DNA of 64,000 bases from a virus. The notes below the pieces were generated by a model, which had not been told where the DNA came from, did no database searches, and worked only from the letters and a program-made list of their open reading frames with translations. The stretch lies in the IMG/VR virus record IMGVR_UViG_3300023179_000077, positions 13,054 to 77,053 of that record; one strand, 5' to 3'. Below, in pieces: positions 15,294 through 42,603 of the stretch. Each line of letters opens with the position of its first letter. The first letter of the stretch is position 1. A program made the position numbers and the translations under genes.

Positions 15294-18200
15294 ATGCCAA
15301 AGATTATTCCAAATTATACAACAATTCCTGGACAGGGATTTACTATTTTAGATTTAGATTTAGGAGAAATAGCACTTAACGTTAGTGATGGTAATCTATA
15401 TCTTAAAAAAGAAACAGCAGGAGTACCAAGTGTTGTTATACTAGCAGGTCCTGGAAATGTTGCTGTTAGTTCATCATATGCTTTAACATCATCATATGCT
15501 AATTATGCTGCTGTAGCATTAAATGCTACTAATTCTCTTAATACTTTATTTGGTATATTTTCACTTCATTCGTATTACTCTCAATTAGCAAGAACAGCAT
15601 CGTTTGCATATAAAGCAGATTATTCTGATTTTGCATTAAAGGCTTTAACAGCTACTAATGCTTCAACAGCATCTTTACCTATACGAGGTATAATAACAGC
15701 ATCAGCTGCTGGTTCTACAATTACATTTACTAAAGGCGATAGCAGTACTTTTAACGTTAGCGTAACAACAGCAACTGCTCAAACAGCATCATATGTTACT
15801 TCATCTAACGTTGATGGTCCTTATGGTAAAAATAGTATACTAACAGCATCATACGCTCTAACAGCATCATTACCGCTTCGAGGTTTAATAACAGCATCCG
15901 CTGTCGGCTCTACAATCACGTTTACTAAAGGTGATAGTAGTACTTTTAATGTTACTATAACAACAGCAACTGCCGAGACTGCATCATATGTATCTTCTTC
16001 TAATGTTGATGGTCCTTATGGAAAAAATAGTATATTAAGTGCGTCGTATGCTGTAACAGCATCTTATGTTTTAAATGCAATAAGCGCCTCGTATGCTCTT
16101 AGTGCCTCACAAGCATTTAGTTCATCATATGCGTTTAGTGCATCACAAGCAGTTAGCTCATCATACGCACTTAGTGCATCGTTTACTTCAACAGCAAGCT
16201 ATTCCCTATCATCATTATCAGCATCATATGCTAGTACTGCTTCTAATATAGAAGGAGGTGCTACAAATTATATTACACTATGGAGAACCAATACTGCTTT
16301 AACAAGCAGTGTAATGTATCAAAGTAGTAGTAATATTACTATAGGTGGTGGAGCTATTTTACCTTCAGCTAGGTTAGAAGTAAAAGGAGCAGGCTCTACA
16401 TCAGCTACTGCTGCTTTAAACGTTATAAATGCTTCATCAACAGATTTATTATACTTAAGAAATGATGGTTTTGTAGGTATAGGAACAGCATCTGCTGCTT
16501 CTACTGAAAATATGTTCATTAAAAAACAGTGGACTATATTTGATCAAGGAGTTGATCTTACAAATTATACTATAGTTGATATATCAAATACAACTAGTGT
16601 TTTAAGATTAGGAGTTGAAACTAATTCTGGAGGAGGTATAGCAACAAATTCTACAGCTTATGCTGGTATAATTGGTACTACAAAAAATATTCCATTACAG
16701 TTTATTACTAGCGGCAGTGTAAAAACTACTATAACATCAACAGGTAATTTTGGAATAGGTATTACATCACCGTTATATACTTTAGATGTATCAGGCAGTG
16801 CTCGTATTACTAGCTCAGTATTCTTACCAGGATTAATTAATACTAGTCAATCTCATCTTATAAGCTATAATTCAAGTTCAGGACAACTTTATTATTTAGG
16901 AACCGGTTCGTTTACAGCTAGTTGGGCTAATAATACTATTAGTGCTTCTAATGCACAAACAGCAAGTTATATTCTTAACGCTGTATCTGCATCGTTTGCT
17001 TCTACAGCTTCATACGTGTTAAATGCAGTCAGCGCATCATTTGCATCAACTGCTTCGTTATCTCAGAATGCATTAACAGCGTCATTTATAACAGCTTCTA
17101 ATGTTTGGGGCCCGTTTGGCTCAAACAGTATTATCAGTTCATCGTTTGCATCAACGGCTTCATATGTTCTTAACGCTGTGTCTGCATCATTTGCAGCAAC
17201 AGCATCATCCGCAGATAATTTTCTAGTTAGAGGCACACTTACTGCACAAACTATTATAGCACAAGTAATAACTTCATCAACTGACTTTGTTACTGGTTCA
17301 ACTCGTTTCGGTACTCAACTCACTAATACACATCAATTTACCGGCAGCGTAAGTATAACTGGTAGTTTAACTGTTACTGGAGCTGGAATTACAGGATCGC
17401 TGTTTGGAACAGCAAGTTGGGCAGTGAGCGCATCACAAGCACTTACAGCTTCATATGTGTTAAATGCTGTATCATCATCCTATGCACTAAGTGCATCACA
17501 AGCTCAAAATGCAACTACAGCATCATACGTGTTAAATGCTGTTTCAGCATCATTCGCTAGTACAGCATCGTTTGTTCAAAATGCTATATCTGCTTCGTTT
17601 GCTTCTACTGCTTCATATGTGTTAAATGCAGTTAGTGCATCATTTGCATCTACTGCTTCATTCGTTCAAAATGCAGTTAGTGCATCATTCGCATCAACAG
17701 CATCCTTAGCTCAAAATGCTTTAACAGCATCATTTGTAACAGCGTCTAATGTTTGGGGCCCATTCGGATCAAATAGTATTATTAGCTCATCGTTTGCTAG
17801 TACAGCATCCTTAGCTCAAAATGCAGTTAGTACTTCATTCGCCGCAACAGCATCATCCGCAGATAACTTTACAGTACGTGGTACACTTACTGCTCAAACA
17901 ATAGTAACTCAAGTTATAACTTCAAGTACTGATTTTGTAACTGGTTCATCTCGATTCGGTACATTATTAACAAATACACATCAATTTACAGGTAGTGTAA
18001 GTATAACAGGAAGTTTAAATGTAGTAGGAGCTGGAATTACAGGTTCATTGTTTGGAACATCATCGTGGGCTAACAATGCAATAAGTTCATCTTATGCATT
18101 ATCAGCATCACAAGCACAAAACGCAGTTAGTGCATCTTATGTATTAAACGCTGTAAGTGCTTCATTTGCTAGTACAGCATCCTATGTACTTAATGCAGTT

Positions 18201-20792: not shown

Positions 20793-23700
20793 TGGACCAA
20801 TATCGTTTGGAGATATAAATGAAGAAGCTCATCTAACAAGAAATACAGCTAATACTATATTAGCAGGTGGAAGTACTCCCCAAGTCGGTTCATTAGTAAA
20901 GTTATATGAAGCTACTGTTAATCAAAGTGCACCTCACGCGTTATCTGAGTTTAGAGGAGTATATTATGATGCTGTTAGTACTACTTTAGAAGTTAAGTAT
21001 GAAACAAACTATTTTTACGCTAATATATATGATTATATAAATTCAACAACAATAACAATATCTGCTGCTTCGCTAAATGTAATTGGTTATGATGATGGCT
21101 CCTGCTCATCTCTTTCAGGAGAATCAGATACAAGTTCAAATGCTTTAGTAATAAATGGTGGTTCATTAAATGCTAATCAACCTGGTAATTATGGAATGAC
21201 TTGTAATACAACTTATTATAAATTTTCTGGTAATTTAGTAATAAACGGGACTAGTAGATATGATGGAGAACAATTCTATATAGGATCAACCTATGTTACT
21301 CTATCATTTCCGCAGTCTTGTACTCCCTATTTCTGTTAATATATTTATTGCTGCCTATATAGGCCTTAGAACACCATAGATATGGCTCAACAAATACTTA
21401 AGCTACGTCGCAGTAGCATACCCGGGAAAGTTCCTAGTACTTCTTCTTTAGATTATGGAGAAATAGCGCTTAACACGTATGACGGTATAGCATACATGAA
21501 GCGATCTGGCTCTAATGGAGATGAAATAATTGCTATAGGCGTTGGAACATCAGGTAGCTTTACTGGTTCGTTTTTTGGTACTTCAAGTTGGGCCTACAAT
21601 GCAATATCTGCTGCTTACGCAGCAACCGCATCATCAGCTGATAATTTTACTGTTAGAGGTACACTTACCGCACAAACAATAGTAGTACAAGTTATTACTT
21701 CATCACAAGAATTAATAACTGGTTCTCTTATTGTTAATGGTCCTTTAACTGTTAATGGTGGAATAACAGGTTCATTACAAGGTACATCAAGTTGGGCTAA
21801 TAATGCTGTACAAGCAATAAATGCTGCTACTGCCTCTAATATATTAGGTGGTACTGCAACATATATACCTTTCTTTAAAACTAATACTACATTAGGCAAT
21901 AGCACAATGTATCAGATTAGTAATAGTTTTAGCACAACAAGCATTGCTATTAATGAAACTAATATCACTTCAGCTAATCCTGAAGCATTATATGTGTTTC
22001 AGACACATCCAACATCAATAAATGTATTAACAGGTAAAGGTAACTTAAATAACTATTTACAAAATAATATACAAAACACCAATCAAGGAGTTAGTGCTTC
22101 ATCTGATGTAGTTGCCACTGCAAATAACGGTAATGAAGATACCAACTACATTGATATGGGTATTAATAGCCAAAACTATAGTGCTGGTTTTATTGGTGAA
22201 GCTAATGATGCTTATTTATATTCAATAGCAAATAATTTACATATTGGTAATGCTAATGATAATGGTACTCATGTTGGTTTCTTTGTTGGAGGAACTGATG
22301 TAGAAGCATATAATAAATTACAATTAAGTCCCAACAACCAGCATAAAATGTCTGGTTCATTAGATATAAGCGGTAGTTTAACTATTAATAATGGTATTAC
22401 TGGATCTTTATTTGGAACTGCGAGTTGGGCTATAAATGCTTTAACAGCTTCCTATGCTGCAAACGTACCTGCAACAGCATCATATGCATTACAAGCATTA
22501 AGTGCATCATTTGCATCAACAGCTTCCTATGCTGCAAACGTACCTGCAACAGCATCATATGCATTACAAGCATTAAGTGCATCAAACGCATTAACAGCAT
22601 CTTATGCTTTAAATGCTCAAGGATCAGGATTCCCATATACTGGATCTGCAATAATAACTGGTAGTTTAATAGTAACTGGTTCTGTAAATGCAAGTTTAGG
22701 CTTTACTGGATCGTTATTTGGCACTGCATCATGGGCTGTTAGTGCATCACAAGCATTAACTGCTAGTTATGTGTTAAATGCAGTATCTGCTTCGTTTGCT
22801 ACATCAGCATCTAGAGCAGTAACAGCATCACTTGCTACAACAGCATCATATGTACTAAATGCTGTTAGTGCATCGTTTGCTACCACTGCTAGCTATGTAC
22901 TTAACGCTGTTAGTGCATCGTTCGCTACTACATCTTCATATGTACTAAATGCTATTAGTGCATCGTTTGCTTCTACTGCTTCATCTGTCAACCAGCTTAA
23001 CCAAGCAGTAGTAATATCAGGATCATTAACAGTAACTGGAAGTTCAGGTACAACACTACTTGTTTCAAACGCTGACACTTTAACGTTTACTGGCTCTATA
23101 TTCACAAGCGGTTCTATTGTATCAACAGGTAGTTTAAGTATAACTAGTATAACTAGTTCATTATTTGGAACAGCATCATGGGCAAATAATGCTATATCAG
23201 CATCATATGCATTATCTGCTTCGCAAGCACAAAATGCTGTAACTGCCTCTTATATACTCAATGCTGTTAGTGCCTCATTCGCTGCTACAGCATCATCAGC
23301 AGACAACTTTACAGTTAGAAATACACTTACTGCTCAAACTATAGTAGTACAAACCATCACTTCATCAGTTGATTTTGTTACTGGTTCTACTCGTTTTGGT
23401 ACTTTACTATCAAATACACATCAATTTACTGGATCAGTAAGTATAACAGGTAGTTTAAATGTAGTTGGAGCTGGAATAACAAGTTCATTATTTGGAACTG
23501 CTAGTTGGGCTAATAATGCTATAAGTTCATCATATGCTGTAAGTGCATCACAAGCTCAAAATGCTGTAACAGCATCTTACGCATTAACAGCTTCTTATGC
23601 TTCTAACGTACCTGCTACTTCATCATATGCTTTACAAGCATTAAGTGCATCGTATGCCAATAATGCAGTAACAGCATCTTATGTATTAAATACAGTTAGT

Positions 23701-26700
23701 GCTTCGTATGCTTCAACTTCATCTTTACCTTTAGAAGGTATAGTAACCGCTTCGGTTGCCGGTTCAACAATAACATTCACTAAAGGTAATAGCAGTACTT
23801 TTAATGTTACTATAGCAACAGCTACTGCTGAAACGGCATCATATGTTACTTCATCTAATGTTGATGGTCCTTATGGAAAAAATAGCATATTAAGCGCTTC
23901 GTATGCTGTCACGGCATCATATACTGTATCTGCTTCATATGCTACTAGTGCATCACAAGCATATAATGCTACTACAGCATCATATGTACTAAATGCAATA
24001 AGTGCATCTTATGCTACTAGTGCTTCTTACGCTGTATCTGCATCACAAGCTCAAAATGCAACAACTGCAAGCTATACATTAAACGCAGTTAGTGCATCAT
24101 ATGCTCAAACAGCATCTTATGCTACAAACATTACAATATCAGGATCAATCACTGGAGTTGATTATATTAATTTTGATACTACAGCTTCATTTGCTGCTGC
24201 TGTTGGTAGATTAGGATATGACAATGGTGAAGGTACTTTAACTTTAGGACTACAAGGCGGAAATGTTACTTTAAAAATTGGAAATGATTTATACCAATAC
24301 GTCTATAATAATACAACATCATCATTAACATTAGGTCAAGTAGTTTACATTTCAGGATCGCAAGGTAATAGAATAGCAGTTAAACTAGCTTCTGCAACTG
24401 CAGAACAAGGTTCAGCAAATACATTAGGATTTGTAGCTGAAACTATTGCTGCTGGTGCTGAAGGTTGGGTAATGACTGAAGGTACTTTAAGAAAATTAAA
24501 TACTACTGGATTAATAGGAGGACAATTAATATACTTAGATGTTATACCTGGTGCTTATACTCAAACACCTCCTGTAGCTCCTGCTCACGGAGTAAGATTA
24601 GGATACGCTGAAAGAATAAGTGCTACTGTAGGATCTATCTATGTAAAAATAGATAATGGATATGAATTAGGAGAATTACATAATGTAGTTGATTCTACTA
24701 CAACGTCTTCATTTGGGGATTTACTTGTTATAAGTGGTAGTGTTTGGATAAATTCAAAACAACTAACTGGATCTTACGGATTAACAGGTTCGTTAAGTGC
24801 TACATCATTTACTGGTAGTTTATTTGGAACATCAAGCTGGGCGAACAATGTAATTAGTGCTTCTTATGTTTCAAATGCTGGTTTATTAAATGGAACTTCA
24901 TCTGCTGTTTTTGCTACTACTGGTTCAAATAATTTTATAGGAATTGAAAATATAACAGGTAGTTTAAACGTATCAGGTTCTCAATCGTTTATAGGAACTT
25001 CTATTAGTGTAGGAAACCAAATAGTTACTGGTAGTTTAATTACTAGTGGCTCTAACACATTAATAGGAAATACTAGTCTTACTGGATCTGTAAATATATC
25101 TGGTTCTACAACACAAGTTGGAAATAATAATTTACTTGGTAGTACTACTTTATCAGGTAGTGTTGTTGTGTCTGGATCTCTTAATGCTTCTGCTAATCTT
25201 ACATTACAAGGTCATTTAAGATTAGATCCAGGACAAGATCCAGGCAATAATAACTTCACAGCATCTTACTTGTTTACGTCTGCTTCTAATACAAATACTG
25301 GCTATGATTTATATTATCGTCAAGATGGTAACTTAATCAAGTTCAAATGGTTAGAAGGTGGGTTAAGTTCAGGTATATTATATGGAGGAACAATTTCTTA
25401 TAGCGGCAGTGTAATATATGTTAAAAAAGGTACAGGCATCATTAATAACATGAATGCTACTACCAGTTCAGAAATTAACCCAATTCTTACATATGTTAGT
25501 TGGAATGATTATACCTCGTCTGCTCAATATATTACATCATCTCAAATTACTTATCTATATGTTAATCCATCAGGAAGTATAGTTCAACAAACTTCTTACT
25601 TTGATCAAACACAGTATGAACAAGCTCTGCCTTTAGGATTAGTTGTTCATCCAAACTATACTACTATTACTTCACAAGAAAGTAGCGTTCAAACTACATA
25701 TGATAGTGATACTCAACAAAATGATTTTATTAGAGCATTTGGTCCTATAAAAGTAAATGGATTTACTCCTTCTGGTCAAACTGGTTCTTTAAGAATTAAT
25801 ATTGGAAGCGGTACTGCATTTACTTTAGGAGGATTTTACAGTCAAAATCAAAACAGTCCTTCACACTATACAGCGACTGCTGCAACTACTGCTTCTCTAG
25901 CTAGAGCTTACAGAACAGGCTCAGGAGTATACTTAGACAGTAATAATAATGCTTATTATACTGTTATTGATCCTTCAAAGTATGATAATGGAAATGGATT
26001 ATCAAACGTAGCTGGAACTAATGCTACTATACAACGTATATTCTATAATCCTGTAGATAAACGAGCAGTAGTTTATTATGGTCAGAACACATATAGCTCA
26101 TTAGCAAACGCATTAACTGCTTTACCATCAGATAGTTTCACAGAAGGAGAATTTACAGCTAAAGCATTACTTTTTGTTGGTTATATAATAGTACAAGGTA
26201 ATGCTAGTGATCTATCCAATACCGGTCAAGCACTTTTCATTCAAGCAGGTGTATTCCGAAATACAGCTGGTGGTTCTTCTGGTGGAGGAGCTATAGCCCA
26301 ATCATTAGACGATTTATCAGATGTAACTATTACTACCCCAACAAATGGACAAGCACTAATATATCAAGGTGGTGTATGGGTAAATGGTACACCTCTAAAT
26401 GCAACTTCTGCTTCATTTGCTACATCTGCTTCTCAAGCACAAAATGCTGTGACAGCATCATATATAATAAACGCGGTTAGTGCATCATATACTTTATCCG
26501 CTTCAAATGCTCAAACAGCATCTTATGTTTTAAACGCTATCAGTTCTTCATTCGCTACTAGCGCATCGTATGCATTATCAGCTTCACAAGCCCAAAATGC
26601 GGTATCTGCTAGCTATGTACTAAATGCTATTAGTGCATCATTCGCTACTAGTGCATCATACGCATTATCAGCATCACAAGCACAAAACACAGTAACAGCT

Positions 26701-26964
26701 AGCTATATATTAAACGCTGTTAGTGCATCATATGCCGCTACCGCTTCATCAGCAGACAATTTCTTAGTAAGAAGTACATTAACTGCTCAAACATTAATAG
26801 TTCAAACTATTACTTCAAGCACTGACTTTGTAACTGGTTCATCTCGTTTTGGTACACTGTTTAGTAATACTCATCAGTTCACAGGCAGTGTAAGTATAAC
26901 TGGATCATTAAACGTTGCTGGAGCCGGAATAACAGGATCATTGTTTGGAACGGCATCGTGGGCA
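17211..26964 (+). repeat. Six 213-nt (71-aa) module copies ADNF.VR.TLT...GITGSLFGT.SWA shared between two fibre genes
   Basis: Copies at 17211-17423, 17859-18071, 18426-18638, 19395-19607, 23299-23511, 26752-26964; partial copies near 21637, 29680 and 31742. Confidence 0.9.
20776..21339 (+). CDS. Putative fibre-tip/adhesin protein
   Basis: LP.NGPIS..DI..E...PHALSEF.G N-terminal motif; overlaps the end of the S74 fibre gene. Confidence 0.5.
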   Translation: MPLPSNGPISFGDINEEAHLTRNTANTILAGGSTPQVGSLVKLYEATVNQSAPHALSEFRGVYYDAVSTTLEVKYETNYFYANIYDYINSTTITISAASLNVIGYDDGSCSSLSGESDTSSNALVINGGSLNANQPGNYGMTCNTTYYKFSGNLVINGTSRYDGEQFYIGSTYVTLSFPQSCTPYFC

Positions 26965-29900
26965 AGTAATGCAACCACTGCAAGTTATATATTAAACGCA
27001 GTTAGTGCTTCGTTTGCTAGCACGGCTTCTAATGTGTTAGGAGGAGCTACTAATTATATTCCACTATGGAACGGAGCTACTACGTTGAGTAGCAGTGTAA
27101 TATATCAGAGCAGTGGAAACGTTCTTATTGGTACTACAACAGATAATGGATACAAATTGAGTGTCCAAGGAGGAGATGTTACTATACAATCTGGTCGTAC
27201 ATTGGATTGGGGTTTTGGAAACATGCGTATAATAAATAGTACGTACGACATGGTGTTCCAAACCTACAATGGCGCATCTACTGCTGAAGCGATGCGTATA
27301 AAGGGATCTGGAAATGTAGGTATTGGTACTTCTGCTCCATCAGCAAAACTTCACGTATCTGGTTCTAATACTGACTCACTATTACTGTTAGCATCTCCCG
27401 GCGCTACGAGTGCTTTGTTTGTAAGTGGTAGTGGTAATGTAGGTATAGGTACTACGAGTCCTGCAGCTTTTGCTAATTATACAACTACAACGATTGATGG
27501 AACTTTAGGTTCTGTCATCCAGTTTCGACGTGCTACTGTTGACGGTTTGCAAATTGCAATAGACGCAAATAAGACTCAATTTCTTGAGCAACGCGCATTA
27601 AGAATGGCCTTCGGTACTAACAACACCGAAAGGATGAATATTTTAGCTAACGGTAATGTCCGTATTGCAGCAAATGCTACAGATTCAGGAGAGCTTTTTC
27701 AAGTTGATGGAACAGCAAGAGTAACGCAGGATGCTTATTTTGCAACGACATCAGGTGGCATATCCATTGGTTCAACCTCTACTGGTGGGGCAAAACTCAA
27801 TATAGTAAATGGTGACTTTCAAATGTCGCCTACATATAAACTAACATTAGCATCAACTACCGGGCAAATATATTTAAGGGCAACTTCAGGTACAGGTGAC
27901 TTGCAAATGTTCACCAACTTCACTGAACGTATGCGCATCACATCCGCTGGTGATGTCGGCATCGGCACCACATCCCCTAACGCAAGACTCGACGTAAGCG
28001 GCAGCACAATAATATCAGGTTCCTTCACAGTAGCTCCAAGCAATGCCATAGAACTACAGGTGACTAGCACAGGAACAAAAATAGGCAACGTTATAACAGA
28101 TACTCACACCGTAACAGGTAGTTTAGGAGTGAGTGGTAGTGTAACTGCAACTAGCTTTACAGGTTCTCTATTCGGAACCTCATCTTGGGCAAGTAACGCC
28201 GTAAGTGCTTCGTTTGCTAGCACGGCTTCTAATGTATTAGGAGGAGCTACTAGTTATATTCCGTTATGGAACGAAGCTACTACGTTGAGTAGTAGTGTAA
28301 TATATCAGAGTGGTAGTAACATAGGAATTGGAACTACAACTCCAGCAGAAAAATTAAGAGTTAATGGAACATTTTCAAGCAACGCTTTATGGACAGATAA
28401 TACAACAATATCATATTGGGGAAATTATCCAACACCATACGGAGGTTTTACTTGGGATACTGGATATGCTACAATATACGCTATTGCAGGAAATATATTA
28501 AGATTGGGTTCTAACGGAGCTAGTCCTGATATGACTATAGATTTATCAGGAAATGTAGGAATAAATACTACTTTACCAACAGCTAGACTACACGTTTCTG
28601 GTTCAAGTGCAGACTCTTTATTGCTATTATCATCTCCTGGAGTTACAAACGCATTGTTTGTGAGTGGTAGTGGAAACGTTGGTATTGGAACAACTACTCC
28701 TGGAGATGCTTTGCAAATAACTAAATCAAATCCGTACATAATAATGACGGGCGATGATGCAAGTTATACGAATGCTGGTATACAAATGATTGCCAACGGT
28801 GCATCTAACCAAAGAGCTTTGGGAATATTTATGTTCCAATCTGTTGCAGGACATGAGTGGTTTATGGGTCAACCTTATGCAGGAGCAGATAGTTTTGTTA
28901 TCAATCGAAGAGTAACAAGTACGCCATCATCGCAATCAAATCCGAAAGGTATTGGCGCGTCTACAGGAACAGTATTTATCGTAACCTCATCAGGTAGTGT
29001 TGGTATCGGCACTACGAATCCGCAAGGAAAATTACATGTTAATGGAGGAGATGTCTTTTTTGGAGATGAAACCAATGTAGCAACAAATATAAGATTAAGA
29101 AGAAATGGAGCTACTGTTGGCTCAATCGGTACATACAATTCACAACTTGAATTATGTGGTGGTAGTTCGATTGGAGCATCTCATATGGTTATTACCTCTA
29201 CTGGTAATGTTGGTATTGGAATAAATGCTCCTACAGCAAAACTTCATGTTTCAGGCAGTACAACAACTAATTTATTAGTTGGGACTAATGACTTGTTTGT
29301 AAGTGCGAGTGGGAATATAGGAATAGGAGAAACAAACCCAACAAGTAAATTAGTAATAAAAGATCTTTCAACATCAGTATTTCAGGCTATAAATGCAGGA
29401 GTAGGTAGTACAGCAGGAATATCATTTCAAAACAACAGCGTTGAACAACTAATAGTTCGTTCAAGAGGTGATATAAGCCGCAGTACAATATATTCGCAAG
29501 TATGGGATTTTGAATTAGGAACTAATGCTGATAAAAATTTACTTTTATATACTAATGGTCAAGAGCGCGTAAGAATAAATAATGGAGGAAATGTCGGCAT
29601 CGGCACCACCACCCCCAACGCCAAACTCGACGTTAACGGCAACGCAATAGTGACCGGTTCTCTTACCGTCACCGGTACAATCACTGCTCAAACGCTAGTA
29701 GTACAAACTATTACTTCATCAATAGACTTCGTAACAGGTTCGTCTCGCTTCGGTACTCTACAAAGCAACACACATCAATTTACAGGTAGCGTAAGCATAA
29801 CTGGATCATTAAATGTAACTGGAGCTGGAATTACCGGATCGTTGTTTGGAACTGCATCGTGGGCAAGTAATGCAATAACTGCATCTAATGCATTAACTGC

Positions 29901-30903
29901 ATCGTTTGTACAGAATGCAGTCAGTTCTTCTTTTGCTACTAGCACTGCTGCTGTAGCAGGTACAACAAACTATATAAGCAAGTTTACTAGTAACACTGCA
30001 ATTGGCAATTCACAGATATTTGACGATGGAAATAGTGTTGGCATAGGCACAGCAAGTCCTACAGCCAAGCTTGAAATTTCTAATACGTCTGCTAATATAT
30101 TATATTTATATTCTACTTCTACTACTGGTACAACAAATAATTCAAGTTTTAGAATTGGCTCGTACGATGGCACGCAAGTATCCGTTGGTACGTATCTTAC
30201 TGAACTAGCTAGTAGTTGGAATAGCTCTAATTTTGCTGGTGGGAATTTTCCTAATTCAAGTGTTTTACTTGGATCAAAAGCTAATGGTTTAGGAATTGGT
30301 GCAAGTTCAGCAACAGGAAATATACGTTTCTTCACGGGCGGTGAAACAGGAGGTAATGAACGTATGCGCATCACTTCTGGTGGTAATATCGGCATCGGTA
30401 CTACTACCCCCAACGCTAAACTCGACGTAAGTGGGAGCGCAATCATCACCGGCTCACTCACCGTCACCCAAGGCATCACCGGCTCACTCTTCGGCACCGC
30501 ATCATGGGCAAACAATACAACAAGCGCATCATACGCCGCCACAGCATCATACTCAAATAACTTCACAGTTGCAAACCAACTCATAATAGATTCTACACTC
30601 ACTGATTATACTACAGTAGCATCATCAATAGTAGGATCGAATAACTTATTCACTCAAGCAACTGGCTCATACACATCAGCATTCTTCAAATACACTGCTA
30701 CTACAGGTAGCAACAGCAGAGCTGGTGAAGTAGTAGCAGTATGGAACGGCACAACAGTACAATACTACGATAATTCAACTGTAGATATAGGTAATACAAC
30801 AGCAGTAACATCATCTGTTTCTATTGTAGGCGGTGATGTACAGTTTAATATGCAAACCAATACTTCAGGATGGAGAATAAAATCATTAGCAACGTTCATG
30901 TAA
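21382..30903 (+). CDS. Giant modular tail fibre (3173 aa)
   Basis: LKLRRS..PGKVP...LDYGEIALN..DG anchor, SAS/TAS repeats and arrays of GNVGIGT-delimited modules. Confidence 0.85.
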   Translation: MAQQILKLRRSSIPGKVPSTSSLDYGEIALNTYDGIAYMKRSGSNGDEIIAIGVGTSGSFTGSFFGTSSWAYNAISAAYAATASSADNFTVRGTLTAQTIVVQVITSSQELITGSLIVNGPLTVNGGITGSLQGTSSWANNAVQAINAATASNILGGTATYIPFFKTNTTLGNSTMYQISNSFSTTSIAINETNITSANPEALYVFQTHPTSINVLTGKGNLNNYLQNNIQNTNQGVSASSDVVATANNGNEDTNYIDMGINSQNYSAGFIGEANDAYLYSIANNLHIGNANDNGTHVGFFVGGTDVEAYNKLQLSPNNQHKMSGSLDISGSLTINNGITGSLFGTASWAINALTASYAANVPATASYALQALSASFASTASYAANVPATASYALQALSASNALTASYALNAQGSGFPYTGSAIITGSLIVTGSVNASLGFTGSLFGTASWAVSASQALTASYVLNAVSASFATSASRAVTASLATTASYVLNAVSASFATTASYVLNAVSASFATTSSYVLNAISASFASTASSVNQLNQAVVISGSLTVTGSSGTTLLVSNADTLTFTGSIFTSGSIVSTGSLSITSITSSLFGTASWANNAISASYALSASQAQNAVTASYILNAVSASFAATASSADNFTVRNTLTAQTIVVQTITSSVDFVTGSTRFGTLLSNTHQFTGSVSITGSLNVVGAGITSSLFGTASWANNAISSSYAVSASQAQNAVTASYALTASYASNVPATSSYALQALSASYANNAVTASYVLNTVSASYASTSSLPLEGIVTASVAGSTITFTKGNSSTFNVTIATATAETASYVTSSNVDGPYGKNSILSASYAVTASYTVSASYATSASQAYNATTASYVLNAISASYATSASYAVSASQAQNATTASYTLNAVSASYAQTASYATNITISGSITGVDYINFDTTASFAAAVGRLGYDNGEGTLTLGLQGGNVTLKIGNDLYQYVYNNTTSSLTLGQVVYISGSQGNRIAVKLASATAEQGSANTLGFVAETIAAGAEGWVMTEGTLRKLNTTGLIGGQLIYLDVIPGAYTQTPPVAPAHGVRLGYAERISATVGSIYVKIDNGYELGELHNVVDSTTTSSFGDLLVISGSVWINSKQLTGSYGLTGSLSATSFTGSLFGTSSWANNVISASYVSNAGLLNGTSSAVFATTGSNNFIGIENITGSLNVSGSQSFIGTSISVGNQIVTGSLITSGSNTLIGNTSLTGSVNISGSTTQVGNNNLLGSTTLSGSVVVSGSLNASANLTLQGHLRLDPGQDPGNNNFTASYLFTSASNTNTGYDLYYRQDGNLIKFKWLEGGLSSGILYGGTISYSGSVIYVKKGTGIINNMNATTSSEINPILTYVSWNDYTSSAQYITSSQITYLYVNPSGSIVQQTSYFDQTQYEQALPLGLVVHPNYTTITSQESSVQTTYDSDTQQNDFIRAFGPIKVNGFTPSGQTGSLRINIGSGTAFTLGGFYSQNQNSPSHYTATAATTASLARAYRTGSGVYLDSNNNAYYTVIDPSKYDNGNGLSNVAGTNATIQRIFYNPVDKRAVVYYGQNTYSSLANALTALPSDSFTEGEFTAKALLFVGYIIVQGNASDLSNTGQALFIQAGVFRNTAGGSSGGGAIAQSLDDLSDVTITTPTNGQALIYQGGVWVNGTPLNATSASFATSASQAQNAVTASYIINAVSASYTLSASNAQTASYVLNAISSSFATSASYALSASQAQNAVSASYVLNAISASFATSASYALSASQAQNTVTASYILNAVSASYAATASSADNFLVRSTLTAQTLIVQTITSSTDFVTGSSRFGTLFSNTHQFTGSVSITGSLNVAGAGITGSLFGTASWASNATTASYILNAVSASFASTASNVLGGATNYIPLWNGATTLSSSVIYQSSGNVLIGTTTDNGYKLSVQGGDVTIQSGRTLDWGFGNMRIINSTYDMVFQTYNGASTAEAMRIKGSGNVGIGTSAPSAKLHVSGSNTDSLLLLASPGATSALFVSGSGNVGIGTTSPAAFANYTTTTIDGTLGSVIQFRRATVDGLQIAIDANKTQFLEQRALRMAFGTNNTERMNILANGNVRIAANATDSGELFQVDGTARVTQDAYFATTSGGISIGSTSTGGAKLNIVNGDFQMSPTYKLTLASTTGQIYLRATSGTGDLQMFTNFTERMRITSAGDVGIGTTSPNARLDVSGSTIISGSFTVAPSNAIELQVTSTGTKIGNVITDTHTVTGSLGVSGSVTATSFTGSLFGTSSWASNAVSASFASTASNVLGGATSYIPLWNEATTLSSSVIYQSGSNIGIGTTTPAEKLRVNGTFSSNALWTDNTTISYWGNYPTPYGGFTWDTGYATIYAIAGNILRLGSNGASPDMTIDLSGNVGINTTLPTARLHVSGSSADSLLLLSSPGVTNALFVSGSGNVGIGTTTPGDALQITKSNPYIIMTGDDASYTNAGIQMIANGASNQRALGIFMFQSVAGHEWFMGQPYAGADSFVINRRVTSTPSSQSNPKGIGASTGTVFIVTSSGSVGIGTTNPQGKLHVNGGDVFFGDETNVATNIRLRRNGATVGSIGTYNSQLELCGGSSIGASHMVITSTGNVGIGINAPTAKLHVSGSTTTNLLVGTNDLFVSASGNIGIGETNPTSKLVIKDLSTSVFQAINAGVGSTAGISFQNNSVEQLIVRSRGDISRSTIYSQVWDFELGTNADKNLLLYTNGQERVRINNGGNVGIGTTTPNAKLDVNGNAIVTGSLTVTGTITAQTLVVQTITSSIDFVTGSSRFGTLQSNTHQFTGSVSITGSLNVTGAGITGSLFGTASWASNAITASNALTASFVQNAVSSSFATSTAAVAGTTNYISKFTSNTAIGNSQIFDDGNSVGIGTASPTAKLEISNTSANILYLYSTSTTGTTNNSSFRIGSYDGTQVSVGTYLTELASSWNSSNFAGGNFPNSSVLLGSKANGLGIGASSATGNIRFFTGGETGGNERMRITSGGNIGIGTTTPNAKLDVSGSAIITGSLTVTQGITGSLFGTASWANNTTSASYAATASYSNNFTVANQLIIDSTLTDYTTVASSIVGSNNLFTQATGSYTSAFFKYTATTGSNSRAGEVVAVWNGTTVQYYDNSTVDIGNTTAVTSSVSIVGGDVQFNMQTNTSGWRIKSLATFM

Positions 30904-30916
30904 AAAATAAAATAAT

Positions 30917-31099
30917 ATGTTTAAAGTAGAAATGCAATTTATTCCAGGAAACAGTCAGATGTGGGTCCTCAAACTAAATCCAGACGATCCCATTTACGAA
31001 TACGACAACGAAGCTGAAGCACAAGCTAAAGCAGAAGAACTTCAAGCAGCAGACTCAACAGGCAGGTTGTATCGTGTATCGACTGTTATGGCTGTTTAA
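30917..31099 (+). CDS. Small hypothetical protein, possibly a fibre accessory
   Basis: 60-aa ORF with A-rich leader between fibre genes. Confidence 0.5.
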   Translation: MFKVEMQFIPGNSQMWVLKLNPDDPIYEYDNEAEAQAKAEELQAADSTGRLYRVSTVMAV

Positions 31100-31117
31100 T
31101 ATTTATTGTAAACCCCC

Positions 31118-31141
31118 TTCCTAGGGAGAGTGAACTAGGAA
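31118..31141 (+). promoter_or_regulatory. 5'UTR hairpin with purine-rich loop
   Basis: TTCCTAG-GGAGAGTGAA-CTAGGAA between late motif 31099 and ATG 31151. Confidence 0.45.
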
Positions 31142-31150
31142 ACAAGTATA

Positions 31151-33718
31151 ATGCCAAATGAATTTGTCGCAAGGAACGGCATAATTGCCCTCAATAACTC
31201 AATAATTACCGGTTCACTTACTGTCACTCAAGGTGTAACAGCATCGCTGTTCGGTACATCATCGTGGGCAACTAACGCATTAACTTCATCTTATATATTA
31301 AGCGCTGTAAGCGCTTCGTTCGCTAGTACTGCTTCTAATGTATTAGGAGGAGCTAGTAGTTATGTTCCACTTTGGAATACTGCTACTAGTTTGAGTAGTA
31401 GTGTGATATATCAGAGTAGTGGAAATGTTGGTATTGGTACTACGAGTCCAAGCTCAAAATTGCACGTCTATAATTTATCCGCTGCTAATGATGTCAGCAC
31501 TACTATATTAGTAATTGAAGCAGGGACAGACGCGACGTTGGGCCCTCTTTCTTTTATTACAAATTTAAGGCCAAGCACAACAGCATCAAATCGAAGAGTC
31601 GAAATATATGCAGGGGATAATGGAAACTACCGAAATGTTACATTCCCTTATGCAAATATTGGCATCGGCACCACTACCCCTAACGCCAAACTCGACGTCA
31701 ACGGCAACGCAATTGTTACAGGATCTCTTACTGTTACTGGCACTATTACTGCGCAGACGCTAGTAGTACAGACAGTAACTTCTTCTGTTAGTTTCGTAAC
31801 AGGATCTAGCAGATTTGGTAGTTCGTTAAGCAATACTCACGATTTCACGGGATCTGTTGGTGTGACTGGTAGTTTGACAGTAACTGGTGATATATCTTCG
31901 ACAGGAAATTTTAAATCTCCAACTACTACTTACTATTTCAATCCAAATACTGGATTATTTAACATTACTAACGGATATATATCGGGATTATACAGCCCAG
32001 GAAGTGTTTTAAGAGCATCTTTCTCTGATACCGCCACTGTTTTTAGCGGAAATGTAAATTTCGCCGGATCAGGTATATGGAATTCTTCAGGAAATGTTGG
32101 TATAGGTACCACTTCCCCTACAGCTAGACTTCACGTTTCTGGTTCAAACAGCGATTCACTGTTACTAGTAGCATCACCTGGTGCTACGAGTGCTCTGTTT
32201 GTGAGCGGAAGTGGAAACGTAGGGATTGGCACTGTAAGTCCCACAGCACCGCTTACGTTTGGTAAATCTGTTTACGCTGCCCCAACAAGCGAAGACTTTT
32301 TCAGAATTAAATTTGAGGATGTAGGTGGAATTGCTAATGATGTAGGCATAGGAATGCCAGCGACTGGCGCAATCGGTTTTAATATTACTGACGTTTCCGG
32401 ATATTACGCATTCTATAAAGGTCCAACGGCAACGGAATTAGTAAGAATTACAAATGCCGGGAATGTTGGTATTGGTACCACTTCCCCATCCGCCCGCCTT
32501 CACGTCTCAGGAAGTACTACAGCTAATCTATTAGTTGGTACTAGCGATTTATTTGTGAGTGCGAGTGGAAATGTAGGTATTGGAACTACAAGTCCAACTG
32601 AAAAACTAACAATCAGAGGGAATGGAGCTAAGATGTTAATAGAAGCAGCATCCGATCCATCCGGGTATTATACTTACTTACAATCTAATTACGATGCTGT
32701 AAATCCATTTGTATTAGTTAGTCAAGGATTCGATATACTCGGATCAAGAACAGCTACATCTCCTGTAGGAACTAGAGCTACTTATCTAAACAGTTACTAT
32801 GATATTTCTTTAAATACAGGAGGAGCCACAGCTTCTTTAGCCACTTCTAAATTGTATATTTCAGCTAGTGGTAACGTAGGTATAGGAACCACTTCTCCCA
32901 ACGCTAAACTAGATGTAAGCGGTAGCGCTATAGTATCAGGATCATTCACTGTAGCTCCTAGCAACGCTGTAGAACTGCAAGTAACGAGTACAGGTACTAA
33001 AATAGGAAATATAATAATAGACGCTCACACTGTTACTGGTAGTTTAAGTGTAAGTGGTAGTACAGTAGTAGTAGGATCTTTAACAATAGGTACATCATCA
33101 CTAGGATCTACTGAAAATACTTTAGTTGTAGGACCATCCCCTGCAGGAGGAACTGGAGAAGGTGGACAAATACTACTTCAAGCAACAGGAGGTACGTATA
33201 CCTCAGCATCAATGCTTGATAATTATCAAAATAGATTCAGAATACTAAGAGGTACAAATGCTGTTAGTGATGCAGAATATTTTAATGTTAGTTTACATTC
33301 TGGTCAGCTTGGATTTAGCAGATATACCGGATCAGGAGCATTTCCTGGAACAGCTGTGGCAAACTTGGCTGTAGATAGCGGTGGTAATGTAATTACAGTA
33401 GCTACTGGAGGTGGTGGAGGTAGTGTAACTATAAACAACAACACAGACAACTATCTTATATCAGCAACAGGTACGGCTAATACTTTAAACGGAGAAGCCA
33501 ATTTACAATTTAATGGTACTGCATTATCAGTAACAGGATCATTTACTGTTATCACAGGCAGTTCAATAGAATTCCAAGTTACTAATACTGGTGTTATAAT
33601 AGGTAATACAACAACAGATACTCACACTATTATAGGAGACGTGACAATAACAGGAAGTATAATAGGAGCCGAACCAATACCTGCTGGAGCTAAATTATAT
33701 TTATTTTATAATTACTAA
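31151..33718 (+). CDS. Modular tail fibre (855 aa)
   Basis: Shares GNVGIGT-delimited modules with the 3173-aa fibre. Confidence 0.8.
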   Translation: MPNEFVARNGIIALNNSIITGSLTVTQGVTASLFGTSSWATNALTSSYILSAVSASFASTASNVLGGASSYVPLWNTATSLSSSVIYQSSGNVGIGTTSPSSKLHVYNLSAANDVSTTILVIEAGTDATLGPLSFITNLRPSTTASNRRVEIYAGDNGNYRNVTFPYANIGIGTTTPNAKLDVNGNAIVTGSLTVTGTITAQTLVVQTVTSSVSFVTGSSRFGSSLSNTHDFTGSVGVTGSLTVTGDISSTGNFKSPTTTYYFNPNTGLFNITNGYISGLYSPGSVLRASFSDTATVFSGNVNFAGSGIWNSSGNVGIGTTSPTARLHVSGSNSDSLLLVASPGATSALFVSGSGNVGIGTVSPTAPLTFGKSVYAAPTSEDFFRIKFEDVGGIANDVGIGMPATGAIGFNITDVSGYYAFYKGPTATELVRITNAGNVGIGTTSPSARLHVSGSTTANLLVGTSDLFVSASGNVGIGTTSPTEKLTIRGNGAKMLIEAASDPSGYYTYLQSNYDAVNPFVLVSQGFDILGSRTATSPVGTRATYLNSYYDISLNTGGATASLATSKLYISASGNVGIGTTSPNAKLDVSGSAIVSGSFTVAPSNAVELQVTSTGTKIGNIIIDAHTVTGSLSVSGSTVVVGSLTIGTSSLGSTENTLVVGPSPAGGTGEGGQILLQATGGTYTSASMLDNYQNRFRILRGTNAVSDAEYFNVSLHSGQLGFSRYTGSGAFPGTAVANLAVDSGGNVITVATGGGGGSVTINNNTDNYLISATGTANTLNGEANLQFNGTALSVTGSFTVITGSSIEFQVTNTGVIIGNTTTDTHTIIGDVTITGSIIGAEPIPAGAKLYLFYNY

Positions 33719-34155: not shown

Positions 34156-34920
34156 ATGTTTTTACCTTTTCAACGGAATAGTAGCAGTTTTTCAGACAGG
34201 TTATATCCTAGAACTGATACAAGTAAGGTTGGCATTATATATACAGTTGAACCATCCGAATACATTAGAACAGGACTACAAGTATATTTAGATGCCGCAA
34301 ATTATCCTGGGACTGGGACTACTTGGTCGGATCTTAGTGGTAACGGTAGAAATTACACATTAGTGAATAGCCCAACGTACAATTCTGCTAATGGCGGTTC
34401 TTTGTTGTTTCAGACTAATCAATATTCTGACGGTCCTGCATCGAATAGTTTTAATATAGATCAAAATGTGACTATTGAATTAGTTTATAAATTAAATACA
34501 TCTTCAGGTACACAATGGGGATTTTTTTTCGACACTTCGGCAGCAGATAGAGGAATTAGTACTCACTTAAATGAAGGAGGATCGACCATTTTTGATACTA
34601 TGGGATACAATACTGGAAATGGAGATAGAATAAGCGTCGGAGCAGTATCTAATGGAACTATAACCCATTTGACATGTAGATATAGAAATAATACTACACC
34701 GCGTAAAAACATATTTAGAAATGGATCTTCAGTTGCGGACTCGGGGGCTAATACCCCTACAGCACTATCTCTTTCAAGTGGTGTAGCTCAAGTACCTGGT
34801 AACAAATATGGTATATATATTGATGCAAACATTTATTTATTTAGAGTATACAACATTGCGCTCACAGACGAACAAATACTATTTAATTTTAATGTTACAA
34901 AAACCAGATTTGGTTTATAA
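34156..34920 (+). CDS. Concanavalin A/LamG-like lectin domain protein
   Basis: GLQVYLDAA.YPGTGTTW.DLSGNG and RVYN.ALT.EQI..NF motifs. Confidence 0.75.
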   Translation: MFLPFQRNSSSFSDRLYPRTDTSKVGIIYTVEPSEYIRTGLQVYLDAANYPGTGTTWSDLSGNGRNYTLVNSPTYNSANGGSLLFQTNQYSDGPASNSFNIDQNVTIELVYKLNTSSGTQWGFFFDTSAADRGISTHLNEGGSTIFDTMGYNTGNGDRISVGAVSNGTITHLTCRYRNNTTPRKNIFRNGSSVADSGANTPTALSLSSGVAQVPGNKYGIYIDANIYLFRVYNIALTDEQILFNFNVTKTRFGL

Positions 34921-39720: not shown

Positions 39721-42603
39721 ATGGCAGTAACTCCAGATCCACAAGACCAGGCAGAATTAAATAAGCTATATCAAGAATATATTAGACTATTAGAAATAGT
39801 TGATGGGAAAACTGCTGCTCAAGCTAAAATACAAGCAGATGCTGCTAAAGTAGCAGGAAATTTAACTAAAGAAGTAAATAGATTAAATAAAGAATTAGAT
39901 AATACTTTATTTAAATCAGATTATTTATATCAATCTTTTAAAGAAACAACAGCTGAATTAAAAAATCAAAATACTTTATTACAAGCCGGCAGATCTACAT
40001 TTAAAGGGCTTACTGATATTGCATCTAATTTAAAATATTTTCAACAAGGAATTACAGATTTAAGTGATAAACAATTAAGAAAACAAAAACAAAAACTAGA
40101 ATATAGTAAGGAAGAGTTAAAAAGTATAGTAGATAGATTATCTAATTCTAAAGGAGAATATAATAAAACAAATCAAATATTAAATTTAGAAAGAGTATTA
40201 ACAACTTTAACTGGTGAAAGAAAAAAACGAGCTGAATTAATATTAGCTAGTTTAAAAAAAGAAGAACAAGTTTATCATACTTCTAAGAATGCTTTAGAAG
40301 AAATGCTTCCTGTATTAGAAAAAGAATTACAATTTTCTAAAGATATATCTAAAGCTAGAGAATCTTTAGGAGGAATTACAACAGCGGCTGCAAAAACTAT
40401 AAGTAAATATGGTGGTTCTTTATCTGAATTTTTAGATATAAATGAGTCAATAGAAGCTGTTGAAGAATATAATAGAAAAATTATAAACAATGCTCTAACA
40501 AGAGAAGATGTTTTAAAAAGTTTACATGAAAATGAATTAAAAAGAATTAAATTAGAAGCAAAATTAGAAACAGCAACAGGAAGTGATAGAAAGAAAATAC
40601 TTGAAGAAATAAATGCTTTAGAAGAAAAAAATCTAGCAATTAAACAAAACGCTGTTAAATCTACTGATACCTTATTAAATAAAATAAAAACATTAGGAGT
40701 ATTCATACAAGGATTAGGACCTGGTCTTAAAAAAGCATTAACAGATCCAATAACATTAATTACTTTTTTTGTAACTAAAGCATTAGAAGCAAATACTCAA
40801 GCAGTAAATCTAGGAAAATCACTTGGAATTAGTGCTGAAGCTGCAACAAAGTTAAGAGAAGAATCGGTAAAGTATGTTAATAATTCTAAAGATACATTTT
40901 TAACTGTAAAACGATTAGAACAAGCTCAATCTGATTTATCTGAAGAATTAGGTATTGCTGTTCGCTTTGGTCAGAAAGAATTAGAAACTCAAGCTCGTTT
41001 AACAGAATTAACAGGTTTATCTGGTCAAGAAGCAGCTAAATTAAATAGAATTGCATCTGCTACAGGTACAACAACTGAAAAGTATGTAGGTAATTTGCGT
41101 AAAGCTGTATTTTTTGCTCAACAAGAAACTAAAACTCATTTTAATAGTCAAAAAATATTACAAGAAATATCTAAATTAAGTGCAGGTATATTAGTTAAGT
41201 TCCAAGGTAATCCTAAAGCATTAGCACAAGCTGTTGTTGAAGCTAAAAAATTAGGTACTAATTTAGATACAATAGATAAAATTGGTGATTCATTATTAGA
41301 TTGGGAATCATCAATTCAAAATGAATTAGAAGCTGAATTACTAACTGGTAGAGAAATAAATTTAGAAAGAGCACGCGCCGCTGCTTTATCAGGAGATCAA
41401 CTAGCATTAACTAGAGAAATATCAGATCAAGTTGGAACATTAGCTGATTTTCAAAATTTAAATGTAATTGCTCAGACATCATTAGCAAAATCATTTGGAT
41501 TAAGTAGAGAAGAAATGTCTGAAATGTTAATGCAACAAGAAGCTATTAATAAGTATGGAGATAAAGCTGCTAAATTAAATAAAGATCAGTTAGCAGATAT
41601 GAAAAGACAAGGACTATCTGTTGATGAATATCTTACAAAACAAGAACAACAACAAACTACTCAACAAAAAATTAATGATACTATAGCCCAATTACAAGAA
41701 AGTATAGGTAATTTAGTTGCTGGTCCTTTAGGTTCACTTATTAATTCATTAGCTAAAGGTTTAGATATTATTAGTCAAATATGGAAATTTTTTGGAAAAA
41801 TAGGTAGTGTAATTAAAGGATTTTTTGGAGATAAAATTGGAGGTATTTTAGGTGATGTTGCTTCTGTAGCTACAATAGGTGCTTTAATAGCATTAGTTAC
41901 TAAGTCAATGTTAAAAGGCACTATCTTTAATCCAATGATTGTTGAGGATGTTAGTTCTATTGGTGGAGGTGGTGGCAATAGTGGTGGAGGTGGTGGATTT
42001 AAAGGTGGTATAGGTAGAATTGGAAAAGCATTTAGCAAAGGCGGAATGAAAGGTGGTGGTAAAGCAATAGGCAGAATACTTAGTAAAACATTAAAAGGAA
42101 ATGCTCTTACAGCTTTAGTAATGGGTGGTATAGATGCTGTTACAAATTTAAGTGAAGGAAAAGGTACAGGTGAATCTATAGGAAGAGCATTAATTACAGG
42201 ATTAACATCACTTGGTGGGGGTGCTTTAGGGTCACTTATAGCACCAGGAGCTGGAACTATAGGTGGCGGCATTGCTGGTGGGATGTTAGGTGATAAAATT
42301 AGTGATTGGATTTTTGGTGATTCACAACCAGTACAAGATGGTATAGCGCCTTCAAATCAAGGACCATTTATTATTAGAAACAAATATGGTAAAACTGCAA
42401 TAACAACTAAAGGTGATAGCTTAGCAGTATCACCTAATATCAATAATGCTTCATTAAATCTTACACCAATGATTAATGCAATTAATGAAGTTAAAAATGC
42501 TATACTTAATCCACCTTCTTCTCAATTACAACCAATAAAACTTTATCTTGATAGTAAAGAAATAACAACAGCACAACAAAAATCATCACGAGGACCTATA
42601 TAA
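39721..42603 (+). CDS. Tape measure protein
   Basis: Long helical Ala/Leu-rich protein with Gly-rich hydrophobic C-terminal part; follows the chaperone genes. Confidence 0.85.
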   Translation: MAVTPDPQDQAELNKLYQEYIRLLEIVDGKTAAQAKIQADAAKVAGNLTKEVNRLNKELDNTLFKSDYLYQSFKETTAELKNQNTLLQAGRSTFKGLTDIASNLKYFQQGITDLSDKQLRKQKQKLEYSKEELKSIVDRLSNSKGEYNKTNQILNLERVLTTLTGERKKRAELILASLKKEEQVYHTSKNALEEMLPVLEKELQFSKDISKARESLGGITTAAAKTISKYGGSLSEFLDINESIEAVEEYNRKIINNALTREDVLKSLHENELKRIKLEAKLETATGSDRKKILEEINALEEKNLAIKQNAVKSTDTLLNKIKTLGVFIQGLGPGLKKALTDPITLITFFVTKALEANTQAVNLGKSLGISAEAATKLREESVKYVNNSKDTFLTVKRLEQAQSDLSEELGIAVRFGQKELETQARLTELTGLSGQEAAKLNRIASATGTTTEKYVGNLRKAVFFAQQETKTHFNSQKILQEISKLSAGILVKFQGNPKALAQAVVEAKKLGTNLDTIDKIGDSLLDWESSIQNELEAELLTGREINLERARAAALSGDQLALTREISDQVGTLADFQNLNVIAQTSLAKSFGLSREEMSEMLMQQEAINKYGDKAAKLNKDQLADMKRQGLSVDEYLTKQEQQQTTQQKINDTIAQLQESIGNLVAGPLGSLINSLAKGLDIISQIWKFFGKIGSVIKGFFGDKIGGILGDVASVATIGALIALVTKSMLKGTIFNPMIVEDVSSIGGGGGNSGGGGGFKGGIGRIGKAFSKGGMKGGGKAIGRILSKTLKGNALTALVMGGIDAVTNLSEGKGTGESIGRALITGLTSLGGGALGSLIAPGAGTIGGGIAGGMLGDKISDWIFGDSQPVQDGIAPSNQGPFIIRNKYGKTAITTKGDSLAVSPNINNASLNLTPMINAINEVKNAILNPPSSQLQPIKLYLDSKEITTAQQKSSRGPI

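Follow-up and report, generated by a model that had tools for sequence, protein, structure and literature searches.

C-rich third codon positions at the closing motifs of fibre cassettes in an AT-rich lytic phage

What could make the third codon positions of phage fibre genes abruptly C-rich just behind their variable modules, while G remains as scarce as in the surrounding scaffold? This question is raised by the window analysed here, a whole stretch of 64,000 nucleotides corresponding to bases 13054-77053 of a 77 kb IMG/VR contig (IMGVR_UViG_3300023179_000077), whose source phage is an AT-rich, lytic-type myovirus from freshwater lake metagenomes. In two of its three giant tail-fibre genes, in-frame cassettes are closed by a copy of a recurring motif, and four of these closing motifs carry tracts in which C stands in place of T without any rise in G. 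The explanation favoured here, to which we assign a probability of about 0.35, is a long-lived T-to-C bias of the coding strand linked to recombination at the 3′ crossover motif. Host-range change in phages occurs largely through the swapping of receptor-binding modules, and the choice of junctions is poorly known outside T-even phages; in this locus, a synonymous, strand-specific mark is located on the cassette 3′ junction.

C-rich tracts on the closing motifs

A motif, G-N-V-G-I-G-T-x-x-P-x-x-K-L-x-V, recurs in the fibre genes in more than 20 copies. At both 'empty' sites of fibre gene 1, a conserved 5′ unit with the terminal sequence S-S-S-V-I-Y-Q-S joins the motif and the downstream scaffold without a gap. 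The same unit is found in fibre genes 2 and 3 at 27007, 28207 and 31313, where unrelated in-frame segments of 0.2-1.2 kb, the cassettes, part it from the closing motif. The nearest relative is the sister phage L005/L006, with 92% nucleotide identity in the sheath gene. The features are given below; C counts and the ratios C/(C+T) and G/(G+A) refer to third codon positions.

15294-20792, plus strand: fibre gene 1, open reading frame (ORF) of 1832 aa with a C-terminal S74 chaperone domain, holding both uninterrupted (empty) sites
18876-19100, plus strand: empty site 1, 5′ unit directly joined to the closing motif, T-ending codons, 3 C of 24
19755-19980, plus strand: empty site 2, T-type, fraction of T at third positions (T3) up to 0.77
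21382-30903, plus strand: fibre gene 2, ORF of 3173 aa with cassettes 1-3 in its distal third
27007-27138, plus strand: 5′ flank unit of cassette 1, repeat D10/D18, with three G-ending codons by the junction
27142-27906, plus strand: cassette 1, C/(C+T) 0.23 and G/(G+A) 0.23, both moderately raised
27907-28041, plus strand: C-run 1, closing capping-loop motif, 17 C of 30, C/(C+T) 0.73, G/(G+A) 0
28207-28338, plus strand: 5′ flank unit of cassette 2, repeat paralogous to the other 5′ units
28339-29586, plus strand: cassette 2, with five internal motif copies, all five T-type
29587-29724, plus strand: C-run 2, 20 C of 30; in its core, all codons able to end in C do so
30037-30387, plus strand: cassette 3, in-frame insert
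30388-30576, plus strand: C-run 3, the longest, 21 C of 30, C/(C+T) 0.81, with a weaker tail to about 30760 (C/(C+T) 0.38)
31151-33718, plus strand: fibre gene 3, ORF of 855 aa with cassettes 4 and 5
31313-31444, plus strand: 5′ flank unit of cassette 4, repeat paralogous to the other 5′ units
31439-31657, plus strand: cassette 4, with a different insert at the homologous place of L005
31658-31753, plus strand: C-run 4, 16 C of 30; the homologous place of L005 (10427-10570) is C-rich too
31901-32875, plus strand: cassette 5, in-frame insert
32876-32971, plus strand: fifth closing motif, moderate C, C/(C+T) 0.42; L005 homology restarts here at 85%

Third-position C (C3) was scanned in 30-codon windows, which numbered 18,987 in the 54 ORFs of the window (mean C3 0.089, 99.9th percentile 18). 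The four C-run windows, located at 27910, 29593, 30409 and 31625 and holding 17, 20, 21 and 16 C of 30, were the top four of the 18,987, with binomial P values of 7e-10 for 16 of 30 and 1e-14 for 20 of 30; since the tracts are paralogous, such site counts overstate the number of independent events. A previous sequence-only reading of this DNA had claimed C-rich third positions 3′ of the variable modules, and the sites that it named at 27955, 29596, 30388 and 31661 are indeed those of the four C3-richest windows, while a fifth, at 32481, was raised only mildly (8 of 24 C). The T-type empty-site copy quoted there for comparison was found at 18993-19028.

When the four tracts were pooled, C/(C+T) reached 0.69 against 0.15 in the scaffold (Fisher 4e-40), whereas G/(G+A) was 0.08, as in the scaffold (0.08) and, if anything, under the neighbouring value of 0.18 (P 0.06). 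The enrichment is confined to a class of motif copies: of the five cassette-closing motifs, four were C-rich, and among the 15 further copies that the scan matched, a value of 12 C of 24 was never attained (P 0.001). GC-biased gene conversion and a simple GC clamp were rejected, as G at third positions (G3) was not raised. The opposite extreme of composition was observed at 19839-19975, a cassette-free closing motif of fibre gene 1 with T3 of 0.73-0.77 and G3 plus C3 near zero.

The C profile peaks on the motif core, rises upstream within about 20 codons and decays downstream over about 60 codons. Counted in codons from GIGT, pooled C/(C+T) was 0.79 at 0-10, then 0.68, 0.55, 0.52 and 0.44, and 0.26 past codon 60, in agreement with the downstream fading described previously; in C-run 3, the weaker tail extends for another 60 codons. 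The shift to C is independent of codon family: pooled over Gly, Ala, Val and Pro, C/(C+T) was 0.71 in the tracts and 0.06 in the capsid gene (P 1e-14). GGC (0.72), GTC (0.5) and GCC are used, and codons for Lys, Glu and Gln keep A at their third position.

This codon usage bears on the possibility that C-ending codons were chosen for the speed or accuracy of translation, or for a programmed pause after the cassette domain. The highly expressed capsid gene does shift to C without G (AAC 0.76, TTC 0.69, ATC 0.45), and related phages carry C-only islands on other very conserved motifs, as described in the last section. However, the capsid and sheath genes prefer GGT (0.84), GCT (0.87) and GTA or GTT and never use GTC, so that Gly, Ala, Val and Pro codons end in T or A there and in C in the tracts, and codon optimisation was rejected. 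Moreover, the same amino-acid motif is encoded by T-type codons in the internal copies of the same proteins, and the codons that are likely the fastest and the slowest are mixed within a tract. A translational cause is therefore considered very improbable.

Comparison with T-type paralogues revealed how one-sided the shift is. In the four tracts, T/C differences were distributed 11:0, 11:0, 8:0 and 7:0, with C always in the tract, and no A/G difference was observed, transversions being as frequent as in pairs of T-type copies. The sequence contexts into which the tracts extend downstream are of three kinds and have T-type homologues. In C-run 3, nearly all codons able to end in C do so, and six homologues of this stretch are T-type; in its tail, parsimony with four outgroups assigned six T-to-C and no C-to-T changes to the branch of the window (sign test P 0.03), and one of each to the branch of L005.

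The sister phage presents a C-run at the same junction as C-run 4, in addition to a second C-run elsewhere, and its cassettes are different from those of the window. The two homologous runs disagree at 9 of 21 pyrimidine sites, and the flank at 20 of the 38 sites that can be compared. Since both runs are C-rich despite this divergence, a lasting force is needed, rather than a relic of a past event: the C-rich state has outlived synonymous saturation or is regenerated.

Open antisense frames of 89 and 210 aa were noticed over only two of the four tracts, the longer of which (29970-30602, minus strand) spans cassette 3 and C-run 3. They are probably a by-product of composition.

Cassette exchange and the 5′ flanks

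Fibre gene 1 matched Peptidase_S74 (PF13884, E 2.5e-14), and fibre genes 2 and 3 matched the solved Bdellovibrio mosaic adhesive trimer (MAT) fibres 8OND (E 7e-10), 8OML (E 2.6e-5) and 8OJN. The recurring motif satisfies the capping-loop consensus of MAT and S74 phage fibres, V-G-G/N-pi-x-x-P-x-x-x-L, as given in the corresponding paper (PMC10769870), and the encoded proteins are accordingly predicted to be trimeric beta-helix fibres made of capping-loop motif repeats. They resemble the MAT/S74 fibres in the repeated motif, in the S74 domain of fibre gene 1 and in a mosaic architecture of conserved base and variable parts. This likeness is found at the protein level, not in nucleotide bias, and the passages of PMC10769870 matched by a term search contain nothing on codon composition or exchange junctions.

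Several lines of comparison indicate that the inserts have been replaced repeatedly. The sister phage has 5′ units and closing motifs in common with the window, and the inserts between them differ: the two phages match at 31313-31473, 31655-31881 and 32870-33611, the intervening inserts are unrelated, and homology ends and restarts at motifs. In the proteins P0002 and P0003, the ends are conserved and the middles differ from those of the window fibres. No relative of cassette 1 was found in a protein search of IMG/VR, and that of cassette 2 returned a single relative, 30% identical. The repeated cassette exchange proposed in the sequence-only reading is thus supported by the empty sites in fibre gene 1, by the interruption of the motif site with inserts in fibre genes 2 and 3, and by other inserts in L005, P0002 and P0003. 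Because homology stops and resumes at motifs and relatives carry different inserts, sequence comparison gives good support for an in-frame exchange of candidate receptor-binding cassettes, with homologous recombination taking place at copies of the capping-loop motif; further copies lie within the cassette segments.

An invertible or site-specific cassette system was rejected, as the motif copies all have the same orientation and inverted repeats of any relevance were absent; a resolvase or integrase of the kind that serves Gin or shufflon-type systems was not found either. Contigs X2 and X3, from two other studies, connect position 27446 to 28135 through 37 letters of different sequence. This is a weak sign (sides of 23-31 letters at a likeness threshold of 85%) that the second half of cassette 1, together with C-run 1, may be missing from a related phage.

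At the 5′ side, the sequence-only reading had described an A-to-G footprint mirroring the one at the 3′ side. The quoted G-ending codons are present: of the 14 third positions that carry a purine in the last ten codons of three 5′ flanks, 9 are G, and the corresponding count in three cassette-free paralogues is 0 of 14. The contrast, however, was not significant over the whole 42-codon flank (P 0.20), and no 5′ flank was found among the G3-richest windows. The three flanks are paralogous to one another and their G codons coincide in position; CAG also occurs in L005, and ACG and CAG in L008. For these reasons, the 5′ changes represent at most about four substitution events.

Composition also varies on a regional scale. 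In the inter-cassette segments, G/(G+A) stood at 0.23, well over the value in the distal scaffold (0.08, P 6e-8) and close to that of the cassettes (0.16, P 0.06), and C/(C+T) was alike in inter-cassette segments (0.24) and cassettes (0.23), both over the scaffold (0.15). The region 27000-32900 is thus probably foreign, somewhat GC-richer DNA, and not a footprint specific to the flanks. GC-richer donors, which had been named as an alternative from the start, fit the cassettes and inter-cassette segments, in which G3 and C3 are both raised, but not the C-only tracts.

Import could still be held responsible for the tracts in another form, as the ends of conversion tracts from an unsampled C-rich and G-poor donor fibre lineage, spread among the junctions by recombination between paralogues. 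The foreign aspect of the distal region is consistent with this origin, the C-type copies form flank-sharing pairs, and variable tract ends would yield gradients. Nevertheless, the composition required was not encountered: across 572 ORFs of related loci, C/(C+T) and G/(G+A) rise together (r 0.72), and no ORF with C/(C+T) of at least 0.6 has G/(G+A) under 0.38; the probability of 4 or fewer G in 53 sites is 5e-7. Lys, Glu and Gln codons remain A-ending in the tracts, and the cassettes beside them are not C-rich. As for a donor, a strict pattern of the C-type core had no match in IMG/VR, a looser one matched only the two contigs of the sister phage there, and no match was obtained in GTDB genomes. 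In metagenomes, the looser pattern was found in two unrelated contigs with ordinary G3, one of 57% GC and the other bacterial-like with 38.5% GC. Ordinary import from a GC-richer donor was rejected on these grounds (tract composition unlike that of GC-richer relatives, adjacent cassettes that are not C-rich and a donor that was not found), and the special donor lineage is regarded as unlikely.

Explanations for the C-only tracts

The favoured explanation retains the earlier idea of strand-specific mutagenesis for the 3′ flank only. In this proposal, the last motif of a cassette, at which the sequence returns to the shared scaffold, would be the 3′ crossover segment, and in this lineage it would have drifted to almost all-C at third positions able to carry a pyrimidine. 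The drift would result from a long-acting T-to-C bias of the coding strand, equivalent to A-to-G on the antisense strand, which would originate where recombination starts or ends, be maximal in the motif core and fade downstream within about 60 codons. It may stem from damage to the antisense strand, the 3′ end of which points into the cassette, or from repair synthesis of that strand, and slow build-up under purifying selection would leave only synonymous changes. The coding-strand pyrimidine shift with its one-sided 3′ gradient agrees with the strand-specific process that the sequence-only reading had advanced; its symmetric footprint on two flanks is not borne out, as the 5′ effect is tiny and confounded by shared ancestry.

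Several observations weigh against this explanation. In the motif core, 16 of 29 sites have C where A prevails in the reference copies, and a pure transition bias would cover C at these sites only at long-term equilibrium. A level of about 80% C requires a local T-to-C rate several-fold above the background C-to-T rate. The A-to-G effect at the 5′ side is weak, with at most three G codons per flank. Recurrence in related genomes, a check that the earlier reading had proposed, is limited to the C-runs of L005: closing-type motifs of other related phages had C/(C+T) of 0.25 (n=5), internal copies had 0.19, and further loci from a scan with the orthologous protein P0001 gave no more clear cases. 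The feature is lineage-specific; only two phage lineages show it. The tracts were identical among samples of 2015, 2018 and 2019, pieces of them recurring unchanged in contigs of the other samples, from 2015 and 2019; no ongoing change was seen, which argues against fast ongoing mutagenesis. No tract variants were listed in these assembled Logan contigs, where rare variants would be invisible; uncovered parts, and many joints at motif copies with short sides and 85% likeness, were kept out of the evidence. Finally, searches of this contig and the sister contig, both about half genomes, and of three complete relatives revealed neither a cytidine/dCMP (CDA-type) deaminase nor a Y-family polymerase.

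The main rival is that the C-type closing motif is a selected signal, which would act as a private homology arm or as another strand-specific signal for recombination. Such an arm would pair only with other C-type closing motifs and not with the approximately 20 T-type copies, so that cassettes would move whole and in register. Eight-base words of the core are present in each of the four tracts and at most once anywhere else in the 64 kb, the tracts lie only at closing motifs, and they are lineage-specific and stable, having been kept in both sister phages despite saturated synonymous divergence. The replacement of A-type sites by C in the core, which is awkward for a transition bias, would also be accounted for. 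On the other hand, A-to-G changes would add divergence or stability to an arm and are absent, a gradient is seen rather than a block, and the four C-type copies could still recombine with one another. No genome-wide oriented word of the Chi type was detected and no site-specific recombinase was found, and the whole scheme depends on second-order selection. Selection for a homology arm of this kind, or for a related signal, is accordingly rated as somewhat unlikely.

Whichever of the two applies, the tracts may represent, as a tentative and rather doubtful generalisation, the footprint or the selected signal of a polar cassette exchange in a lytic phage, started on one strand at the closing motif. 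A polar exchange of this type would leave or require an asymmetry in which the coding strand is C-rich and the 3′ end of the G/T-rich strand enters the cassette. A mutational origin would turn the tracts into a legible trace of the site and the strand at which exchange begins, and a selected one would provide a design principle for orthogonal homology arms that preserve whole modules. They offer a clean natural case of codon composition that is not explained by expression, GC-biased conversion or donor composition.

A diversity-generating retroelement, or another form of homing based on reverse transcriptase (RT), would make the C-rich tract a 3′ target element. A GC-rich element 3′ of a variable region does recall the initiation of mutagenic homing (IMH) element of such systems, the tract itself being C-rich and not G/C-only. 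However, the differences of the tracts are of the T/C type and not A-to-any, the cassettes are unrelated sequences rather than point-mutated copies, and the tracts are identical over years. A template/variable or near-identical repeat pair was likewise absent, and the RT domain (RVT_1, PF00078) was not detected in five related records, which comprise the contig of 77 kb, that of the sister phage (97 kb) and three complete related genomes, the two nearest contigs being about half genomes (46% and 58% complete). A retroelement was therefore rejected as a hardly credible cause. The search for enzymes that might act at the junctions, among which an RT, a deaminase or a recombinase had been suggested, returned no RT, CDA-type deaminase, Y-family polymerase, integrase or resolvase.

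Other candidates were rejected at the level of the sequence itself. No conserved RNA structure was consistent over the tracts (z -2.05 to 1.06), and a stem between the 5′ and 3′ flanks was discarded for lack of relevant inverted repeats. A Chi-like hotspot would require an oriented word spread over the genome, and the core words are private to the four tracts. The tracts rank top for C minus G, as a Rho loading site would, but they are of average G content and similar scores are reached at other sites.

Known systems and other features of the contig

No description of such tracts was found in the literature, although several known systems share parts of the pattern. In T-even phages, distal fibre adhesins are said, after work by Tetart and colleagues in 1998, to be swapped between conserved motifs, the His boxes of gp37 and the glycine-rich motifs of gp38. 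The likeness lies in short conserved motifs that bound variable receptor-binding segments, in the variety of segments that relatives bear inside equal motifs and in exchange by homologous recombination within the motifs; the motif and the fold differ, and in the present genes several cassettes are arranged in series. We know of no synonymous, C-only, one-sided recoding of the 3′ motif in the T-even adhesin system. Cuts by homing endonucleases in T-even phages generate co-conversion tracts and marker exclusion, and these resemble the present case in a polar gradient that extends from a fixed site in conserved coding sequence, in a phage that has GIY-YIG endonuclease-like genes. Co-conversion, however, copies the donor and by itself creates no C-only bias, and no endonuclease gene lies beside the fibre genes.

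Vertebrate mitochondrial DNA exhibits strand-asymmetric deamination gradients, in which A and C are abundant and G and T scarce at the third positions of one strand, as expected if the single-stranded complement suffers A-to-G and C-to-T changes graded by exposure. That gradient is genome-wide and linked to replication, whereas the tracts span 100-190 bases on a recombination junction of a double-stranded DNA phage, in which single-strand exposure would have to be assumed. GC-biased gene conversion is similar in producing a local synonymous gain of GC where recombination is frequent, and differs in that G3 should rise too. The G-rich initiators of gene conversion in antigenic variation follow a similar logic, here transferred to a phage fibre gene and without a retroelement.

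Strongly C-shifted stretches were also recorded on other conserved motifs of related phages. In L039, a relative with 46% GC, the final capping-loop motif before the C-terminal domain (2638-2832) is the GC3-richest stretch of its gene, with 17 C and 5 G of 24. C-only islands (11-14 C and 0-2 G of 24) were observed at L016:3262, L026:11431, L027:9857, L030:11843 and L024:506, all five on the motif I-Y-N-R-A-L-S-x-x-E-I-L-Q-N-Y-N-A, which is conserved at the C terminus of a LamG-like protein, and GCC, CGC and CTC codons are included; the LamG protein of the window (34156-34920) shows only a faint version. Another C-only island (14 C and 0 G of 24), on N-T-T-G-A-N-N-x-A-L-G-T-N-S-G-C, was found at L007:19569 and L059:6622, within fibre ORFs of GC3 0.17-0.18.

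The 77 kb contig, with a CheckV completeness of 46%, encodes a portal, a major head protein, tail sheath, tail tube and baseplate parts, and complete related phages measure 167-174 kb. A distant blastn search against the GenBank (INPHARED) phage collection gave zero matches. Three to four GIY-YIG homing-endonuclease-like ORFs were located in the contig, at 51925-52671 and 62562-63176 of the window and, upstream of the window, at contig bases 1436-1666 and 2550-2726; several ORFs of this kind are also present in the sister contig. An additional ORF of 239 aa with a weak GIY-YIG match (E 1e-3) separates the sheath and tube genes of L005 (17960-18676) and looks like the insertion of a free-standing endonuclease, the sheath of the window (end 38056) being the direct neighbour of the tube (start 38105). 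A 960-aa ORF with no PHROG match (39721-42603) harbours the strongest G-over-C stretch of the window (41781-42300), which includes 35 G and 2 C in the 80 bases at 41944.

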